A stretch of DNA of 39,041 bases from a virus (lineage: Duplodnaviria > Heunggongvirae > Uroviricota > Caudoviricetes): positions 128,001 to 167,041 of the IMG/VR virus record IMGVR_UViG_3300038379_000173. The stretch is one strand, 5' to 3'. The translations under genes and the position numbers were made by a program. The notes under the pieces are model-generated. The model searched no databases. It was not told the origin of the DNA and saw only the letters and a program-made list of their open reading frames with translations. This document shows positions 2,017 through 29,142 of the stretch, piece by piece; within the stretch, counting starts at the first letter, position 1; every line of letters begins with the position of its first letter.

Positions 2017-3594
2017 TTATTTCTTTTTGCTGAGCATTTGCTCAACCAACGGAGCATATGCTTTAACGATATCGTCACCGCTGAACTTTACTTCATTACC
2101 AGCGGGTACTTTTTCTGAAGCTTTGACGTGATTGAGAACAGCAGAAAGGTCTTCGGTATGTGTTTTAGGAGCTAGGGCGTCCTTAACCGAGGCAGCAACT
2201 TTTTCGTCTACCCCAAGAAGGGTAGCAAGTTGCTTAAGCTTTTCGCCAGCGTCCTCTTTCTTCTCTTCCTTCTTCTCTTCTTTTTTCTTCTCGTCTTCTT
2301 TTTCCATGAAGTTAGACTTTGAAACATCCACGAGAGTGGCTAGGACACTGTCAAATGAAGCATCGTCTAACGACTTAGTTGACGTGAGTAGAGCGTCGCG
2401 CTTTGATTTCTTTTGTTCATCTGAAAGCTTTAGAGTAGCGAGCGCAGCATCAATTTTAGATGCGCGCACGGCATGGCGCGCTTGCTCCTCCATCGCCGCA
2501 ACTTTCTCAAGAGCCGCCTTGAATTTCCCTTGAAGCTCCACGGCAGCTTTCTTGTCTTCCTCAATAAAGGAAGCTAGGACAGTGAAAAAGTTTTCTGGAT
2601 TATCCTTGGATACTTTAGCACCCAACCCTGGGAGGGTTGTCTCAAGTTGCTGGAAACCCTTGGCTAGCACAATTTTAAGAGTCTCACTTGCTTTAGAAGC
2701 ATCAGCCAACTTAGCAGTAAGCTCAGCAACCGTTTTTTCGGTAGCGGCCAACTGTGCCTGGACGGCCGTTAGTTCGCTCTTTTCAACTGGCTTCTCAACT
2801 GTCATATTAATCCCTTTCGATGCTACAGTAAGATAACCCAAATTCCCTACAGTGTGTTGCAAAATCTTATCGTCTTGGGCAGCAGTAGCACTTATTGGTT
2901 CTTGTGAAACATTCATTATAATAGAAGGTTCGTTGGCTGGTCTTGCGACAATACCCTTGCCGCCAAAAGTAAGACCGCGCAGTACTCTGCGCACCCTACT
3001 ATTCTCATATACACCATTACCACCAAGCGCTCTAAGATGGTTGTCTAAAAACGCGGTTGCGGTATTACGTGCGACAATACGGTCGCCTACCAAATAATCA
3101 TAGTTTTTGAACCAAACTTCCATTGAAACAAACAATGAATTGTCTTGGGCGGCCTTACTTATTCTTGCCGCAGTATTTGGATAAAGACCGCGCCATATAA
3201 CCGCTTCGTCAACTATATGGAAAAAGTGAGGAGGAGTAGAGTCATCTTGAATAGGAACGCCGTCGCCATCTATGGTATATGTATCATACATAACACCAAT
3301 AGTTTGATTGTCCACGACGACTTGACCAGGCGCTCGCGCCTGTTCATCTGGTGAAAGTTCACGTCCGCTTGAATGTTCCCAGTTGACGGGTTTGTACGCC
3401 GGAGTATGACGCGCCGGCCATAATTCCTCTGGGAGAAATACGTCGTCGTTACCATTCCAACCGGCGCTAACTAACAGGGAGCGCATAAAAAGTAAATCTG
3501 GTTGCGAGGTCGGAGTGGCAGTAGCAATCGCCTTAGACGGATGTCTGAGGGTATCTGTTAATTGTGCTGCTACCAAAAGAGTTATGCGTTCCAT
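2017..3594 (-). CDS. Prohead protease-scaffold fusion
   Basis: N-terminal half with NGNDDVF, PVNWEH, VSMEVWF, FGGKGIVARPAN (phage maturation-protease-like); C-terminal half K/E/A-rich coiled coil; canonical position. Confidence 0.75.
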   Translation of the reverse strand: MERITLLVAAQLTDTLRHPSKAIATATPTSQPDLLFMRSLLVSAGWNGNDDVFLPEELWPARHTPAYKPVNWEHSSGRELSPDEQARAPGQVVVDNQTIGVMYDTYTIDGDGVPIQDDSTPPHFFHIVDEAVIWRGLYPNTAARISKAAQDNSLFVSMEVWFKNYDYLVGDRIVARNTATAFLDNHLRALGGNGVYENSRVRRVLRGLTFGGKGIVARPANEPSIIMNVSQEPISATAAQDDKILQHTVGNLGYLTVASKGINMTVEKPVEKSELTAVQAQLAATEKTVAELTAKLADASKASETLKIVLAKGFQQLETTLPGLGAKVSKDNPENFFTVLASFIEEDKKAAVELQGKFKAALEKVAAMEEQARHAVRASKIDAALATLKLSDEQKKSKRDALLTSTKSLDDASFDSVLATLVDVSKSNFMEKEDEKKKEEKKEEKKEDAGEKLKQLATLLGVDEKVAASVKDALAPKTHTEDLSAVLNHVKASEKVPAGNEVKFSGDDIVKAYAPLVEQMLSKKK

Positions 3595-3992: not shown

Positions 3993-6125
3993 TTAAATCT
4001 CCTGCGCTATGGCCGCTGCCATCGCATCAATAAGTGGGAGTGTTTGACGATTTGAGCTAAAAGTTGCGGCTAGACTTTCCTTGATATGATTATAGGTTAG
4101 AAGCACCCTTTGAACATCTTCTACCAAAAAAACATCCTGCCTATAAAGATGACTACCGACCACACAAGTCATCTCATCAATACCATCGACTTCGCCTAAA
4201 ACGCTAACAAGTAAGTCACGCAAACTCATTAGATGAGCCTTCACGCGCGCCATCCCTTTGGGTTTCGTCACCCTCTTTTTCTTTTGTGGAATACCTTTGG
4301 AGTTTTTAGGTCGCCCATTCAACCCACCTTTTTTAGCAGGCGGTCCACCTGGCAAAACAGGTGCATTCTGTTCCTCTTGTTCCTCTAAGGTAAGCATAGG
4401 GTCTGTGTAGGGTCCATGTTTCTCCAACAGGCCCTCTTTTTCGCGTATGGCCTGTTCCTTGCGCATACGCGCTAATTCAATTTCAAAATCCTCACCAAAA
4501 GTATCAAGGACTGCCTCGATAGAAATAACATTGCGGTCAAGTAGTCCAAGGATAAGTTGCTTTTCTGCTGTCTCATCCCTAAGAGACATCTTGCCGAAAC
4601 GAACAGTCGGGAGACGTTTATGTCCAAGCGTTGTGGAGATGATTTTGAATTGCTCATAAAGCCATTCGAGAACGGCCGAACGTCCTTCTTCTAGACGTTC
4701 AAGGAGTGTGCGAACACCTAGGAAGCCAACAGAGAAATTGCTACTACTGCCGCCCAAAAGAACATCTGGGATGCCCAAACCGCGCAAGATGTCTTTATCA
4801 ACACTTTCATATTTAGCATGATTTAGTATTTTATCAACTGGCGGATAATTACTCTCGATAGAGATTGCATCGTTCCACACCATAGACATCGCTTGGGTTG
4901 GCGTGCGTAGTAACTCAGAAAATTTAGCTAAATGCTCTGGTTTGGGAATAATACCTTCTTCGACACGTCCAAGCTTAAAGATAGTCACAGCATTTATAAT
5001 GCTATTGCAAACACTAATATCCATCTGACGCATTTTGTTTTTGAAGAAAATGTCTGCCATGACTGGCCATAGAAGTGGGTCTGCCCAATCTTCGTGGTCA
5101 TCCTTCATATAGTGAAGCGTCCACAATTTAGATTGGTCCAACTCTACAGAACGACCATCTTGCACTTCACCAGCCGGCCGTTCTTTTATATCCTTGTCTA
5201 GAAGTTGAATGAATTCAGGCGGCAAGTTACAATCACTTTCTTCAAGAAAATCAACGAGGCCGTCTACATTAGTATTAATACGTGTACCGTTTTTAATCTC
5301 ACTAACGGTTTCGTTGTCGAGCATGAATACCCAGCGCGAAGCACCAAAGAATTTACTACCTCTAAGTTCCATTTGAAATGGATTGAGAAGTGTATATCGC
5401 CATGGGATTTGGCGTTCTAATAGAGACTTCTTTGACTCGTCATCAGCCTGCTTTTCTCTTGTCGGAGCTTCTGGGTCATTAGTATCACCCAAAGAGATAT
5501 TAAATCCCTCTATAGAACCATCTGGTGCATATGAAATTGCGCGCGAACGTTTCATTCTATCGTAAGCACGTTTTTCAATTGTTCCATATGTAGTGTAGAT
5601 GAAAACATTGCAATACTTGTAGTATTGTCTTAGTATATCGTTAACACGCTTTTGTAAGCCGACGTGGGCGGCCCAACGTTGATAAAATCTCTCTACAGTC
5701 TCATCTGGATGAGAGATTTTAAGACCCTCTCCGGCAAAGTTTGCCATAAGGTCAATGACATTTTTAGCTACACCGAATCCTTTATAGGCACTAACACACA
5801 TAGCCATTTTATAGTGAGCTAATTTTGTTGCATGGTGTACGGCAGCATTACTACCCTGTATTCCGAGTGTATATGACGGACTACCAATAAAACCAAGTGG
5901 GTTTGGATTACTTTGATTACGATGTTGTGATGAATCAAACAGTCCAAATGGATTTAAAAGTGGGTTTAGACCAAAATCGTTCAAACCAAAATTATGCCCA
6001 ACGTCACCAGGATAATTGACCCCGCGTCGTTGTATATCAAAAGCGGCAGCACTCGCGCCTTGATTTGCTTCAAGGCACGAAGCAACAGATTGATTGTAAG
6101 TGTCTAAATCTGGTTTGTCTGTCAT
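3993..6125 (-). CDS. Portal protein
   Basis: 710 aa; position between terminase and protease; KNVIDLMANF, LGIPDVLLGG and VRFGKMSLRDE segments typical of portals. Confidence 0.8.
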   Translation of the reverse strand: MTDKPDLDTYNQSVASCLEANQGASAAAFDIQRRGVNYPGDVGHNFGLNDFGLNPLLNPFGLFDSSQHRNQSNPNPLGFIGSPSYTLGIQGSNAAVHHATKLAHYKMAMCVSAYKGFGVAKNVIDLMANFAGEGLKISHPDETVERFYQRWAAHVGLQKRVNDILRQYYKYCNVFIYTTYGTIEKRAYDRMKRSRAISYAPDGSIEGFNISLGDTNDPEAPTREKQADDESKKSLLERQIPWRYTLLNPFQMELRGSKFFGASRWVFMLDNETVSEIKNGTRINTNVDGLVDFLEESDCNLPPEFIQLLDKDIKERPAGEVQDGRSVELDQSKLWTLHYMKDDHEDWADPLLWPVMADIFFKNKMRQMDISVCNSIINAVTIFKLGRVEEGIIPKPEHLAKFSELLRTPTQAMSMVWNDAISIESNYPPVDKILNHAKYESVDKDILRGLGIPDVLLGGSSSNFSVGFLGVRTLLERLEEGRSAVLEWLYEQFKIISTTLGHKRLPTVRFGKMSLRDETAEKQLILGLLDRNVISIEAVLDTFGEDFEIELARMRKEQAIREKEGLLEKHGPYTDPMLTLEEQEEQNAPVLPGGPPAKKGGLNGRPKNSKGIPQKKKRVTKPKGMARVKAHLMSLRDLLVSVLGEVDGIDEMTCVVGSHLYRQDVFLVEDVQRVLLTYNHIKESLAATFSSNRQTLPLIDAMAAAIAQEI

Positions 6126-18752: not shown

Positions 18753-19862
18753 TACTTTGTTTAACCGTTTTAGTTGTGATGGAACATTTCTTGTGTTTGT
18801 TTTTCATTGCTATTTTTTGCTGTGAGAATTGTGGTGAAACACTTTCTGCTTTTGTCTTTCATTGCTTATTAGGGACCCCCAGGGCACCCAAGCCCCCCAA
18901 GCGCTTACGTAACTCCAAAAACCCCACCCGGTTACGCTACGCTCCACCGGGCGTTTGCTACGCAAACATTGTGCCGGCACAGAAAATGCTTGTCGTTCCA
19001 GCGCCGCCATAACTCCTTTGTTAGACGGCCGCATTAGAGCCCCTTGGCGCCACGCTCGCCCCTTCCTTCGACCCTTCGACCCTACTTCCGCGCCATTGTA
19101 TAATGCCCCCTAATAGATATTAGGGCTCCCCGCCCCCTAGCGGCCCGTCCCCCCCGCGGCCCCTTCTCCCCATATCCTCTCCCCCGCGTGGTATGGTGGA
19201 GCCATAACTCCAACGTCTACCGTGAGGGGTTTGGGTCACTCTGATACAGTGTAAAGTAAGCCTACATTACATCTGCCAAGCCTTCCCTTGAAATATATAG
19301 AGATATGTTTTGGTCTCCCGCGTGCTATAGATACATCGTCCGCGCCGCGCAGCGCGGGCCGCGAGTCTCGCCTCTCTCCGCTCCTGCTGCGTGCGGTCGA
19401 GCGGGGAAAGCCTCGAGTCTCGCGCTTGCTACGCGCGCCACCCTGACGCACTGGCGCTTGATAGGTGCGTCCGCTCTTTTCCAATTCACGGTGGACCGAT
19501 ACAAGGGCTCCCCCTCTGAGTCAGATAATCCCTGACTCGGGCCGCGCGTCGCCGCGGCATATTCGCCGGTTACCCTGTCGCGCTTGCGCGAGGGAAGCGA
19601 AGAGAGGGCCCGTCCTGTATCGCTCCGAGTCGCACTGCAAGCTGCTTGTTCACCCCTGCGTCGGGGCGCGCAAACAGCCGAATGCGCGATACCAATTCGT
19701 CAAATTGAGTGTTCCAACACTACCGATATCCCTAGGGGAATGACGCTATCGGTGGTGCACAGGGACACTCTGTCTACTCTACCACTAGGTTTTCCTAACC
19801 GAATCACTGTCCTATATGGGACTGTGAGGGATAACTAGATGTGGTAGGATAGACAATAAAGT

Positions 19863-19927
19863 GTAGCCAAGGGTCGGCCGACCTAGCGCTTTTGCACTAG
19901 GGTCCCGTTCAAATCGGGAGGCTACCA
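19863..19927 (+). ncRNA. tRNA-like element A (non-canonical)
   Basis: GTAGCC/GGCTAC acceptor-like stem ending in CCA; T arm TCCCG-TTCAAAT-CGGGA; palindrome GGTCGGCCGACC in place of D arm; TAGCGC-TTTT-GCACTA in place of anticodon arm. Confidence 0.65.
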
Positions 19928-20591: not shown

Positions 20592-20620
20592 ATGATTCCC
20601 TGAAAGGGAACGCGGTAGCG
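20592..20620 (+). repeat. Twin-hairpin element copy 1
   Basis: ATGA TTCCCT-GAA-AGGGAA CGC-GGTA-GCG, 6 nt after a stop codon. Confidence 0.9.
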
Positions 20621-24361: not shown

Positions 24362-24679
24362 ATGCGGATTAAGATTGCCGACAAGCGCTTGCGTGCGCGT
24401 GCGGACGCGCCTCGCGAGCGCAGTATCGACGCGGACCTTTCCCCTGTGGCAAGGTTCGACACTCCGGCCGACATCCGCGCGATGAAGCTGCGGTCCTTCA
24501 GCCCGCACACCAAGAAGCCCCCGAAGCCCGCTAGGGAGCGCAAGCGTATCGTGATTCTCGCCCGTCCGACCCCGGTCCGCCGCCCCACCCTGGAGGAATT
24601 CGCATCCGCCCTCGCACTCCTCAATTCAAATGAAAACGCAGTGCGTGCGCATAACCTCAAGGTCGGTAAGGTCCGCTAG
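24362..24679 (+). CDS. Highly basic hypothetical protein
   Basis: R/K/P-rich 105 aa, MRIKIADKRLRARAD..., between element copies 6 and 7. Confidence 0.65.
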   Translation: MRIKIADKRLRARADAPRERSIDADLSPVARFDTPADIRAMKLRSFSPHTKKPPKPARERKRIVILARPTPVRRPTLEEFASALALLNSNENAVRAHNLKVGKVR

Positions 24680-24714
24680 TCAATTCATACCCGCCCCCAC
24701 ATTAAAATGTAAAA

Positions 24715-24741
24715 ATGATTCCCTCTGGGGAACGCGGAGCG
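24715..24741 (+). repeat. Twin-hairpin element copy 7
   Basis: ATGA TTCCC-TCTG-GGGAA CGC-GGA-GCG; precedes the ncRNA cluster rather than an ORF. Confidence 0.85.
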
Positions 24742-24759
24742 GGCTTCAAGTTTCAAATA

Positions 24760-24829
24760 AGTAATCCTATGGATAGGCGCCTGTAGCTAGCAATAGCTTG
24801 GGCTGGCGGGTTCAATTCCCGCATTACTG
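24760..24829 (+). ncRNA. tRNA-like element B (non-canonical)
   Basis: AGTAAT/ATTACT acceptor-like stem; T arm GCGGG-TTCAATT-CCCGC; CCTAT-GG-ATAGG D-like hairpin; AGCTA-GCAA-TAGCT capped arm. Confidence 0.65.
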
Positions 24830-24836
24830 TTAGTTA

Positions 24837-25645
24837 GACGCGCACGGAAATATAAGCGCCCAACGGCTCGCGCCGGAGGGATAGAGCTTGCTCGCAAGCT
24901 GCCGCTTATATTTTCCCAGGCGTCGAAGCGAGCGGGAATTCCCCTAAGGGGATGAAACGCGCCCGGCCTAACGGCTGGTATAAATGCTGGGCAGCGAAGG
25001 CCCAACGTAGCACGGGAAAAGATACCCGGCCGCTCTCTATCCATCCTGATTGAATCTGCAAGGCTAGCGACACTAAGCCTTTATGGCTTGTGAGCGCGAG
25101 GCAATACCGCCTTGCAATGTAGGTCAGGACGAATATCAGAGCCCACGGTATCCAACCCGGACGGGTTAAGTGTTCATGCCAAAACACTCATCCGCGACAA
25201 TCCTATTGATGTTTGTTGGATTGGTAAGGTCTACCTCCCAATTCAATAAATTGACATTGGATAGGTCACGGTTCCGAAAGGTCCACTCGCTAACGCGGGG
25301 CCCCGAGCAAGGGTAAGCGATAATGCTTACATTCTGCCGCGACAGGGTGCCAGGGCCGCTCCGATAGGCTAATGGGCTTGCTATGCAAGATTAAACCCGC
25401 GAAATGCCAAAAGGTGCGGTAGGGCTTAACTATCATTGAGAGATAGCGGACCACAGTAGGAATCGAAGATGCGGCAGCGACAATAAGTCCTGCATCTTGG
25501 ATGTAAAATAACTCATAGGGAAGCATTATCCAAATGCTGACCCGAAGGGGTGGGGGTTAACAATAAGCTCTCGCAGGAGTAGGGAGCGTCATGACACGCC
25601 GTGTCATGGCCACGCTCTTTTGTTAACTCCGAGACTCCACCTGTC
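24837..25645 (+). ncRNA. Candidate large (about 800 nt) highly structured ncRNA
   Basis: No credible ORF; continuous nested helices with G-T pairs on the plus strand (see findings); flanked by tRNA-like elements. Confidence 0.7.
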
Positions 25646-25699
25646 GCATAACAAACCTAAACGTGATATATAACGCAAGGTAATTATGCGCCAGAAAGT

Positions 25700-25760
25700 A
25701 GAATGTCCGGGCCGGCCGGCTTGCGTTCGCGCATGATAGGTTCAATTCCTATACATTCTA
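25700..25760 (+). ncRNA. tRNA-like element C (61-nt mini-tRNA)
   Basis: 7-bp AGAATGT/ACATTCT acceptor plus A; T arm ATAGG-TTCAATT-CCTAT; palindrome GCCGGCCGGC; TGCG-TTCG-CGCA arm. Confidence 0.7.
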
Positions 25761-25849
25761 TCGCTCCAACGCTCAGTGTCTACGCATACGTTGCAGCGAG
25801 CCGTGCCATGAGTTTGTAGTATAGGATTGGTGCGAAGAAATATATTAAA

Positions 25850-26102
25850 TGTTACTAGGGATTGGGATAGTGGTCGCCCCAATGCCGAATTAGACCAAAG
25901 GCGCCAAACCTTTCTTTGGTGTAGGGGTTGTGAGCTAATAACTCATAATCCTTATTCGGATTGCTACGCGTACGGGAAACGTCTCAGAAACTCTAGTGTT
26001 GTGCTAAGTATCACAGAATAGATAATCAGTCAACAATCCTTTATCAAATGCATGTGATAAATGGGTTGGTAGAGTCTGAGGGGCTCGGCATATACTACTA
26101 CC
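25850..26102 (+). ncRNA. Second structured non-coding block
   Basis: ATTGGG/CCCAAT, CCGAAT/ATTCGG, GCGCCAAA/TTTGGTGT, AGGGGTTGTGAG/CTCATAATCCTT, TTTATCA/TGATAAA. Confidence 0.5.
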
Positions 26103-26105
26103 AAA

Positions 26106-26134
26106 ATAATTCATCGAAGATGAACGCGGTAGCG
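26106..26134 (+). repeat. Twin-hairpin element copy 8
   Basis: ATAA TTCATC-GAA-GATGAA CGC-GGTA-GCG, ATG at 26146. Confidence 0.9.
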
Positions 26135-26145
26135 AGTGTAAAAAA

Positions 26146-26328
26146 ATGATTTGGTGTATTAAATCCTCCTGGTCCTCCGGTCCAATCTCCAGGGACAACC
26201 CCGACCTTTATCTATCCGCCGATAGTAAGGATGAAGCCGAGCGGATTGCTCGGGACATTTTGAGGTTGTCAGAGTGGGGTCAGTGGACATTGGAGGTTTC
26301 TGCGGTTCTCACTGAGGAGAAATATTAA
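26146..26328 (+). CDS. Hypothetical protein
   Basis: ORF track; follows element copy 8. Confidence 0.6.
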   Translation: MIWCIKSSWSSGPISRDNPDLYLSADSKDEAERIARDILRLSEWGQWTLEVSAVLTEEKY

Positions 26329-26329
26329 A

Positions 26330-26947
26330 GTGGACCAAATCTATAATCATCCTCTGCCGCGCCGTTGTATTCGGTGTAAGACTCCGACGGGCGCGCGGTA
26401 CATTTGCGCCAAATGCAATAGGCAGGCATACGCGCCGCTTAAGAAGCCCAAGTATTGCCACCGACCCGCTGCCGAAACTGGCAAGCGTCTGACGGCTGAG
26501 CGCATGCGTGACCCCTCTGGGGTTGCCAATGTTGCCGCCATTGATACCCTCCCCGTCCTGCATAAACTCCAGGCAGCGGCCATTCTTAGTAAGTTTGGCG
26601 AGAATACTGCATTGAGCAGTTACCTTATCACGCACTATGTTGCGAAGGGTCGGGCTAATGACATTGTCACTATGACCAGCGACGGCGCGCGCTTTTTCGA
26701 ATCTGAGATTGCGCGCATTGTCGATAGCGGAGTGGTAGGTAAGTGGAATGATGATATGCGCGCGACTAAGCCCCGCGCGCAGTCTTTCACTACCAAGGAC
26801 CGCAAGGTTATCCCGCCCGAATGGACCGCAAAGCGCTCCGAATTTCAGCAGAGGTATAACGCGGCCCGCGCCGCTGCCGTTGAAGGTGGGGCCAAGGAAA
26901 TGGCCCTGAGGGCTAAGGTTTTGGAAGCTGGGGGTAGGTTTATCTAG
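26330..26947 (+). CDS. Hypothetical protein with N-terminal CxxC-CxxC
   Basis: GAGGAG RBS, GTG start, CIRC...CAKC. Confidence 0.7.
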   Translation: MDQIYNHPLPRRCIRCKTPTGARYICAKCNRQAYAPLKKPKYCHRPAAETGKRLTAERMRDPSGVANVAAIDTLPVLHKLQAAAILSKFGENTALSSYLITHYVAKGRANDIVTMTSDGARFFESEIARIVDSGVVGKWNDDMRATKPRAQSFTTKDRKVIPPEWTAKRSEFQQRYNAARAAAVEGGAKEMALRAKVLEAGGRFI

Positions 26948-29055: not shown

Positions 29056-29142
29056 GGCTCCGTAGCCCAATGGCCGAGGCGGGGCGCTCAAAACGCCTGA
29101 CGAACTTAAATGTTCATGTGGGTTCGAATCCCACCGGAGTCA
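29056..29142 (+). tRNA. tRNA-Leu (anticodon CAA)
   Basis: GGCTCCG/CGGAGTC acceptor, GGGCG-CTCAAAA-CGCCT anticodon arm, long variable arm, GTGGG-TTCGAAT-CCCAC T arm; CCA not encoded. Confidence 0.92.

Follow-up and report, generated by a model that had tools for sequence, protein, structure and literature searches.

A large structured phage RNA ending in a tRNA-like module: a candidate new class

INTRODUCTION

Very large, intricately folded RNAs of bacteria and their phages are rare and fall into few classes (GOLLD, ROOL, OLE and raiA). Recent work has shown that these known giant classes form RNA-only assemblies without precedent; to our knowledge, none of them has a known function. Phages also encode other stable RNAs among their tRNA genes, such as rnaC and rnaD in the tRNA cluster of phage T4. 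The acceptor and T arms, the T-loop and the GG-containing loop of the D-arm are the parts of a tRNA that are read by RNase P and RNase Z.

GOLLD is a phage-encoded RNA of at least ~800 nt that lies next to tRNAs or holds them, contains many multistem junctions and has been found in lake metagenomes (bioRxiv 10.1101/2024.12.08.627333). Its 3' region is better conserved, whereas the 5' region is variable, as is the linker between the separate 5' and 3' domains (bioRxiv 10.1101/2024.12.08.627333). In MALAT1/mascRNA, at the 3' ends of MEN-beta and in the t-elements of plant mitochondria, tRNA-like folds are cut by RNase P and RNase Z and thereby yield RNA ends (PMC4919922, PMC1920247). The precursor of the C4 antisense RNA of phages P1 and P7 is an RNase P substrate, according to a reference listed in PMC4919922.

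RESULTS

Genomic setting and coding potential

The whole stretch of DNA analysed here (39 kb, hereafter the window) is the final part of a 167-kb IMG/VR phage record, the completeness of which is estimated at 91%. The sequence is present in one sequencing run, a freshwater DNA metagenome that is probably the source sample; the search of sequencing runs listed no RNA sequencing runs containing it. The left part of the window is occupied by large minus-strand genes, including that of a class II ribonucleotide reductase. From ~16 kb on there are small plus-strand genes, which code for a Mom-like protein, an AAA_33/polynucleotide-kinase-like protein and three tRNAs (identified by ARAGORN at 29056, 36954 and 38241).

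One gene ends at 24679 and the next starts at 26146, with no credible ORF between them. A reading made from the sequence alone (the sequence-only reading) had proposed that ~800 nt of this interval lack a credible ORF and instead form a large structured RNA. The first part of this proposal is borne out. The longest stop-to-stop frame has 97 aa, and no reading frame is conserved in 24680-26145. At the protein level, tblastn gave no meaningful match between the RNA region and its homologue in a related phage contig (L026, see below). Indels between the two sequences are mostly out of frame (13 of 15, the other 2 being multiples of three), and mismatches are spread evenly over the three codon phases, with no three-base period. 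The region 24830-25698 is non-coding.

Fold and domain organization of the RNA

24830..25698, plus strand: large structured RNA, ~869 nt if cut at both flanking tRNA-like modules; fold z -6.3; collinear with L026 3839-4909

The minimum-energy fold of 24830-25700 on the plus strand has an energy of -334.5 kcal/mol, compared with -284 +/- 8 kcal/mol for dinucleotide shuffles (z -6.3). It is thus ~50 kcal/mol below the shuffles and beats every one of them, which is the outcome that the sequence-only reading required of a genuine structured RNA. The minus-strand fold is weaker (z -4.3). A sliding scan with a 200-nt window places the fold signal at 24800-25000, 25000-25200 and 25400-25700, and the signal is absent in the flanking genes.

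The local pairings read from the sequence earlier are all present, at the coordinates given for them, in the minimum-energy fold. GACGC (24837) and GCGTC (24920) surround GGAAATATAAGCG/CGCTTATATTTTCC, while GAGCGG (24930) and CCGCTC (25030) enclose four hairpins. The fold also includes helices TCCTGATT/GGTCAGGA, TGCAAGGC/GCCTTGCA, GTAAGC/GCTTAC, AAGATGCGG/CTGCATCTT and GGGGTTAACAA/TTGTTAACTCC as well as the long hairpin 25202-25265. From 5' to 3', the RNA can be divided into the following parts:

24837..24924, plus strand: 5' hairpin A, in which GACGC/GCGTC closes a 13-bp AU-rich stem with a forked tip (minimum-energy fold)
24926..25036, plus strand: multibranch domain, a closing helix and four hairpins, one of them with the conserved loop AGCGWAG
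25043..25265, plus strand: variable middle, with nested TCCTGATT/GGTCAGGA and TGCAAGGC/GCCTTGCA, small hairpins and the 64-nt AU-rich hairpin 25202-25265 (minimum-energy fold)
25276..25470, plus strand: conserved core 1, compact and multi-helix, 66% identical to L026 by blastn (E 1.7e-18), with covarying hairpins; represented by covariance model R1
25471..25698, plus strand: conserved 3' domain, consisting of stem AAGAUGCGG/CUGCAUCUU, a conserved hairpin (loop AAAUAAC), the three-way element 25545-25640 and a nested tail hairpin

Core 1 contains invariant single-stranded blocks (GAAAGG, AGCAAGG, AUUCUGCCG, GAUUAAAC, CAUUGAGAG and CACAGUAGG). For the 3' domain, 25536-25698 is supported by the match of a model built on the window only (R3, see below), and 25471-25535 by the sequence alignment and RNAalifold. 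Since hairpin A was not aligned to L026 by the model, its support comes from folding energy only.

One of the pairings proposed earlier, the long-range GGATAGAG/CTCTATCC, fares less well. The complementary sequences do exist, but an 8-bp match of this kind is, by our estimate, expected by chance given the size of the RNA, and it has no support from covariation. GGAUAG and YUAUCC each occur twice in both RNAs (window 24879, 25035, 25202 and 25258; L026 3961, 4154, 4331 and 4388), and the copies could pair in alternative combinations, GGATAGAG/CTCTATCC included. Because these motifs are invariant, covariation is uninformative about them in either direction.

A homologue in a syntenic phage

The homologue search suggested by the sequence-only reading yielded one homologue, the 23-kb Logan contig L026 of a syntenic phage, which shares synteny with the window over ~14 kb. 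It was found through the downstream 205-aa protein, only one relative of which (62% identity) turned up among 5.8 billion proteins. At the matching place, L026 has a 3.1-kb stretch without called genes. The homology is collinear, with window 24926-25760 corresponding to L026 3839-4976. By blastn, window 25276-25474 aligns with L026 4407-4607 (E 1.7e-18) and 25496-25749 with 4703-4965 (E 2.5e-10), at 62-66% identity. A local alignment of 24926-25102 with L026 3839-4029 is weak and collinear with the rest (score 46.5 compared with 26.6 +/- 4.2 for shuffles).

Homology was also tested with covariance models built from the window sequence alone, independently of L026. The 5' model R2 (24830-25050) matched L026 3839-3965 (E 3.6e-6), including the entire four-hairpin multibranch, and the 3' model R3 (25536-25761) matched L026 4748-4977 from end to end of the model (91 bits, E 3e-25). 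As both matches are collinear with those of blastn, the RNA is homologous over at least 24926-25760. Conservation falls off towards the 5' end: blastn aligns the 3'-most 470 nt, only the covariance model recognizes the multibranch, and hairpin A is not aligned at all. The RNA of L026 exceeds that of the window by ~300 nt, owing to insertions within the middle and one of the stems. The middle region has ~200 extra nt and contains a long hairpin (4331-4392) that looks comparable by eye; the stem AAGAUGCGG/CUGCAUCUU carries an insert of ~75 nt. Another contig, obtained from a sister sample, has the same sequence as L026 in the RNA region and adds no variation.

Helices are kept between the two phages through compensatory changes. 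RNAalifold on the sequence alignment predicted 110 pairs, 33 of which are changed on both sides. When the minimum-energy fold of the window was mapped onto L026, 34 of its 177 pairs were doubly changed yet paired, 15 were singly changed and 52 were broken, many of the broken ones in stems poorly handled by the sequence-based aligner. The minus-strand mapping was worse (24 doubly changed, 18 singly changed and 63 broken). The signal is clearest in the model-based alignment of the 3' domain, where 30 of 76 pairs are changed on both sides and still pair (95% of cells paired), compared with 1-5 doubly changed pairs in slid controls, in which the partners were offset by 1, 2 or 3 columns. In the multibranch, helices 6-10 have nine doubly changed pairs that still pair; this count leaves out helices 1-4, which are contaminated by a palindromic self-hit. 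Since the RNA is known in only two lineages, the covariation is that of one sequence pair, for which an R-scape-type statistic is impossible.

The compensatory changes in a second lineage, together with the conservation of the 3' tRNA-like module along with the RNA (see below), bear out the proposal of a large structured non-coding RNA on the plus strand. The choice of strand is supported by the better z value and by the more numerous compensatory and fewer broken pairs of the plus strand. In addition, the T-loops of the flanking modules read correctly only on that strand, and the element upstream of the RNA is the same as that of plus-strand genes.

The well-supported helices are all local, and no conserved long-range pair joins the 5' and 3' halves. 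A real, if unlikely, alternative to a single molecule is therefore that the locus yields two or three distinct structured RNAs (5' hairpin with multibranch; middle; 3' core), transcribed together and then cut apart. An array of this kind would fit the middle, where the lengths in the two phages are ~200 nt apart and the alignment is poor. Against it stands the strictly collinear order of domains over 0.8-1.1 kb in both phages. Moreover, scans of 24830-25698 found no tRNA-like module, terminator or twin hairpin inside the stretch, and GOLLD, too, consists of separate 5' and 3' domains and a variable linker.

The tRNA-like modules

Acceptor-stem plus T-arm modules had been noticed on both sides of the RNA, and both of them hold up:

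~24759..24829, plus strand: tRNA-like module 1, with a 6-bp acceptor stem, a 4-bp hairpin with loop UGGA, a GCAA-capped long arm and a 5-bp T stem with loop UUCAAUU
~25699..25760, plus strand: tRNA-like module 2, with a 7-8 bp acceptor stem, a short GC hairpin, a UUCG-capped hairpin and a 5-bp T stem with loop UUCAAUU

In single-sequence minimum-energy folding, each module forms a four-arm cloverleaf on its own. In both, a tetraloop hairpin (GCAA and UUCG, respectively) sits where the anticodon arm would be, so that there is no anticodon, and a short hairpin with a GG-containing loop takes the D-arm position. Neither module is called by ARAGORN. In Rfam they give weak tRNA-Sec matches (23.5 bits for module 1 and 19.4 for module 2, the gathering score being 47). 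A tRNA of family RF00005 should have a 7-nt anticodon loop and score above 29 bits; neither module does, and neither has a tRNA match. When the genome was scanned strictly for T arms directly adjoining a 6-7 bp acceptor stem, both modules were found, with 0.15 hits expected from shuffled genomes. The same scan also finds the true tRNAs and two further elements, one of them an odd element outside the window:

19862-19926: third anticodon-less mimic, with acceptor GUAGCC, a UUUU-capped arm and T-loop UUCAAAU; a bulged rod-like hairpin lies upstream
G000:C1:11554-11658, outside the window: tRNA-shaped element of 105 nt, with a perfect 7-bp acceptor stem and T arm and a long insert in the D region; not called by ARAGORN

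Module 2 is kept in L026 (4913-4977) with all four arms, and 14 of its 23 pairs are changed on both sides and still paired. The L026 module has a GCGA tetraloop in place of UUCG and an unchanged T-loop, and it likewise gives a weak tRNA-Sec match. No counterpart of module 1 was found in L026 by either the Rfam scan or the acceptor plus T-arm scan. The idea that the RNA is bracketed by two tRNA mimics acting as punctuation consequently stands for the conserved 3' module but not for the 5' one: as neither the 5' module nor hairpin A was found in L026, bracketing is specific to the window phage. As judged from the two sequences, the 3' tRNA-like cap belongs to the conserved unit.

Module 2 has the layout of a t-element or mascRNA, with an acceptor stem on the T arm, a canonical T-loop and a position exactly at the end of a longer RNA. 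As in MALAT1/mascRNA, MEN-beta and t-elements, a non-decoding tRNA-like fold lies directly 3' of a long RNA or, in those systems, flanks an mRNA; the difference is that they are eukaryotic (nuclear or organellar), whereas here the processed transcript would be that of a phage. From the shape of the modules we infer that they may be cleaved by RNase P or RNase Z.

The mimics might instead be the functional products, serving as decoys or substrates for tRNA-directed enzymes or defences of the host, with the long RNA as a mere leader or spacer. Their recurrence in the window (19862-19926, 24759-24829 and 25700-25759) and in related phages speaks for this idea, as does their location in an island of tRNA and RNA-kinase genes. 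Nevertheless, a mere spacer would not be expected to keep ~70 helix pairs by compensatory change together with a dozen invariant single-stranded blocks, and we find the idea very improbable.

Comparison with known RNA classes

The sequence-only reading had left open whether the RNA is a member of GOLLD or ROOL or a new giant RNA, and had named a cmscan search as the check. At gathering thresholds, Rfam 15 identified two tRNAs only in the window. At E <= 10, the hits in the 2-kb region around the RNA were the weak tRNA-Sec matches plus two that are evidently due to chance; L026 gave tRNAs and the weak tRNA-Sec match to the mimic. In these scans at E <= 10, there were no matches to tmRNA, RNase P RNA, intron, OLE, HEARO or riboswitch models.

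The two giant phage classes were also searched with their own models on the whole phage genome. GOLLD (RF02032; gathering score 150 bits) had no match at E <= 10, 15 candidates having been scored. ROOL (RF03087; gathering score 99.1 bits) had none at E <= 10 either, which is weaker evidence, as the control genomes remained unmatched too. Permissive cmscan runs on the window and on L026 listed neither family. Membership in GOLLD or ROOL is thus not borne out, and the alternative of a new giant RNA is supported, no family of Rfam 15 matching the window or L026.

The likeness to GOLLD extends to size, the phage setting near tRNAs, multistem junctions, a conserved 3' and a variable 5' region and fresh water; at ~869 nt, with a less conserved 5' part and in a phage near tRNAs, the RNA has the GOLLD layout, though in layout only. 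It differs from GOLLD by the anticodon-less mimic fused to its 3' end and by the lack of a match to the family model. ROOL, likewise large and ornate, is encoded by phages and prophages, in many cases close to tRNA islands, but differs in size and domain plan and comes from the rumen, whereas the RNA described here is from fresh water and has no match to the ROOL model. The setting, the similar size, the freshwater origin and the conservation pattern shared with GOLLD could all be expected of a very divergent GOLLD or ROOL missed by the Rfam models. In view of the empty searches with both models at E <= 10 on the genome (with the reservation on ROOL controls given above) and the permissive scans of both homologues, we regard this explanation as highly improbable. 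Because no known family matches, the RNA represents a new class that resembles GOLLD and ROOL in setting and layout only; the data support placing this class within the known kind of large ornate phage RNAs near tRNAs.

The C4 precursor of P1/P7 and rnaC/rnaD of T4 are comparable in being phage non-coding RNAs that are matured by host RNase P or located among phage tRNAs. They are, however, only 77-140 nt long, compared with ~870 nt here, and have no sequence or Rfam relation to the RNA.

Several other candidates were considered and rejected. For tmRNA there is neither an ARAGORN nor an Rfam match, and either module forms a complete acceptor stem by itself within 60-70 nt. RNase P RNA has no Rfam match; motifs resembling those of RNase P RNA (GAAAGGUCC and GGGUGCCAGG, by eye) are in a different order than in that RNA, and GGGUGCCAGG is not conserved in L026. 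Group I and group II introns have no Rfam match at E <= 10 in the window or L026. A Y-RNA/Ro system was dismissed, there being no TROVE protein in the genome.

Distribution of the RNA

The RNA is apparently rare, having been found in two lineages in the collections searched. No blastn match to it was obtained among INPHARED phages, and IMG/VR contained no relatives of the flanking proteins. Among 5.8 billion proteins, two flanking proteins had matches only in the window and L026 lineage. The polynucleotide-kinase-like protein has many relatives, and the contigs fetched for them are without the RNA. Scans of IMG/VR, JGI metagenomes and GTDB genomes for the conserved motifs returned chance hits only, located in coding regions. 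No credible match was found in related phages G001-G010 by blastn or with models R1 (also with filters off), R2 and R3. This rarity limits comparative analysis.

More distant relatives, ~45-55% identical in a 710-aa protein, have no match to R1, R2 or R3. They nonetheless have ORF-free gaps of 1.0-1.15 kb near tRNA-Leu(CAA) and anticodon-less mimics of 59-62 nt. At L054 17256-18108 (G002), ~790 nt without ORFs end directly in a 61-nt anticodon-less mimic, the fold z being only -2.2. The ORF-free stretch at L051 8471-9800 (G001) ends in a terminator-like hairpin and contains the motif AATGAGACGTATTGTGG four times. Both stretches (0.8-1.3 kb) lie upstream of tRNA-Leu(CAA) and, by model search, are not homologous to the window RNA. 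Another relative (G004) has a type-P5 twister ribozyme at L053 5580-5640 (53 bits, Rfam gathering threshold 37.6).

Flanking sequences and expression

A repeated twin-hairpin element occurs on the plus strand of the window. Nine copies, aligned by eye, are located at 20592, 20915, 21505, 21610, 22148, 24320, 24715, 26106 and 28682. The unit is ~35 nt long and consists of ATGATTC, a 5-7 bp stem with a 3-4 nt loop, GAAC and a 3-bp mini-hairpin, the variants of which are GCG-GNA-GCG, CAC-GGA-GUG and CCC-AGA-GGG. Both stems covary, as the inner stems differ between copies and still pair. Seven of the nine copies directly precede an ATG, usually within 10-15 nt. The element could be a phage-specific promoter, a leader or a protein-binding RNA site. 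L026 carries another repeated motif, AAATGAGAY..., at 3047 and 3136.

The copy that had been reported just upstream of the RNA was confirmed:

24715..24745, plus strand: twin-hairpin copy with ATGATTC, stem-loop, GAAC and GCG-GNA-GCG, 14 nt before module 1

Its position 14 nt before module 1, similar to that before plus-strand genes, suggests that the RNA cassette is expressed like its neighbours and from the same strand. No promoter for the cassette was identified.

25761..26105, plus strand: non-coding spacer, followed by twin hairpin 26106 and a 60-codon ORF (26146-26328)

The spacer shows no similarity to L026 in the alignment, and the fold z of 25761-26329 is modest (-2.4). As the 60-codon ORF at 26146-26328 begins directly downstream of twin hairpin 26106, it is probably here, and not at 26330, that coding resumes. 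In L026, a further 1.07 kb without genes (4977-6051) lies between the tRNA mimic and tRNA-Cys. This stretch is densely paired in its minimum-energy fold and has a T-arm-like GCGGGGTCGAATCCGC near 5107; it has no counterpart in the window.

No terminator-like site was found after the large RNA, the spacer included. Together with the shared strand, this is what one would expect if the RNA were a giant structured 5' untranslated region acting in cis on the genes from 26146 on. Such a leader would, however, be interrupted by a conserved putative substrate of the RNase P type between the RNA and those genes. Furthermore, 1.07 kb and tRNA-Cys separate the RNA from the next gene in L026, so a link to one downstream gene is not conserved. 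Taken together, we consider a cis-acting role very improbable.

DISCUSSION

We lean towards the view that the locus encodes a large trans-acting phage RNA of a new class, processed from a read-through transcript by means of a tRNA mimic. We infer that it is transcribed on the plus strand with the neighbouring early-region genes, cleaved at the module edges and released as a single functional molecule of ~870 nt in the window phage and ~1.1 kb or more in L026. The order of domains would be a 5' hairpin, the four-hairpin multibranch, the variable middle, the compact core and the three-way 3' domain, followed by the anticodon-less tRNA mimic.

Transcription would read through the locus without stopping at a terminator. 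As there is no terminator-like site after the RNA, its 3' end has to come from processing. [quoted passage not shown] Host RNase P would thus produce the 3' end of the large RNA and a 62-nt mimic. In the window phage, the upstream mimic may be a site for RNase Z, or for trimming after RNase P, which would give a 5' end near 24830. This model of processing is plausible, although the half of it that involves the 5' bracket is not conserved.

Once freed, the RNA may function in trans in the form of a stable folded particle, which is also the supposed mode of action of GOLLD and ROOL. Its location in an island of tRNA and RNA-kinase genes favours action on translation or the tRNA apparatus, and we would, loosely, take that apparatus of the host as its probable target. 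A different possibility, which we consider unlikely, is that of a free-standing RNA machine or cage like GOLLD/ROOL, in which the fused mimic serves as a handle recruiting host tRNA-binding factors. The factors so recruited would be RNase P, the CCA-adding enzyme, the ribosome or elongation factors. On this unlikely reading, the occurrence in this phage group of different long RNAs with a mini tRNA mimic at the end of each would reflect a general phage system for obtaining trans-acting RNAs from read-through transcripts.

A further class of giant RNA is useful in having a clear domain plan and a built-in tRNA-like end that hints at the route of maturation. The large insertions in the L026 version mark dispensable parts of the RNA. 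Together, these features make for a compact new target for structural work. The locus would also be a phage example of the end formation by tRNA mimics known from MALAT1 and plant mitochondria.
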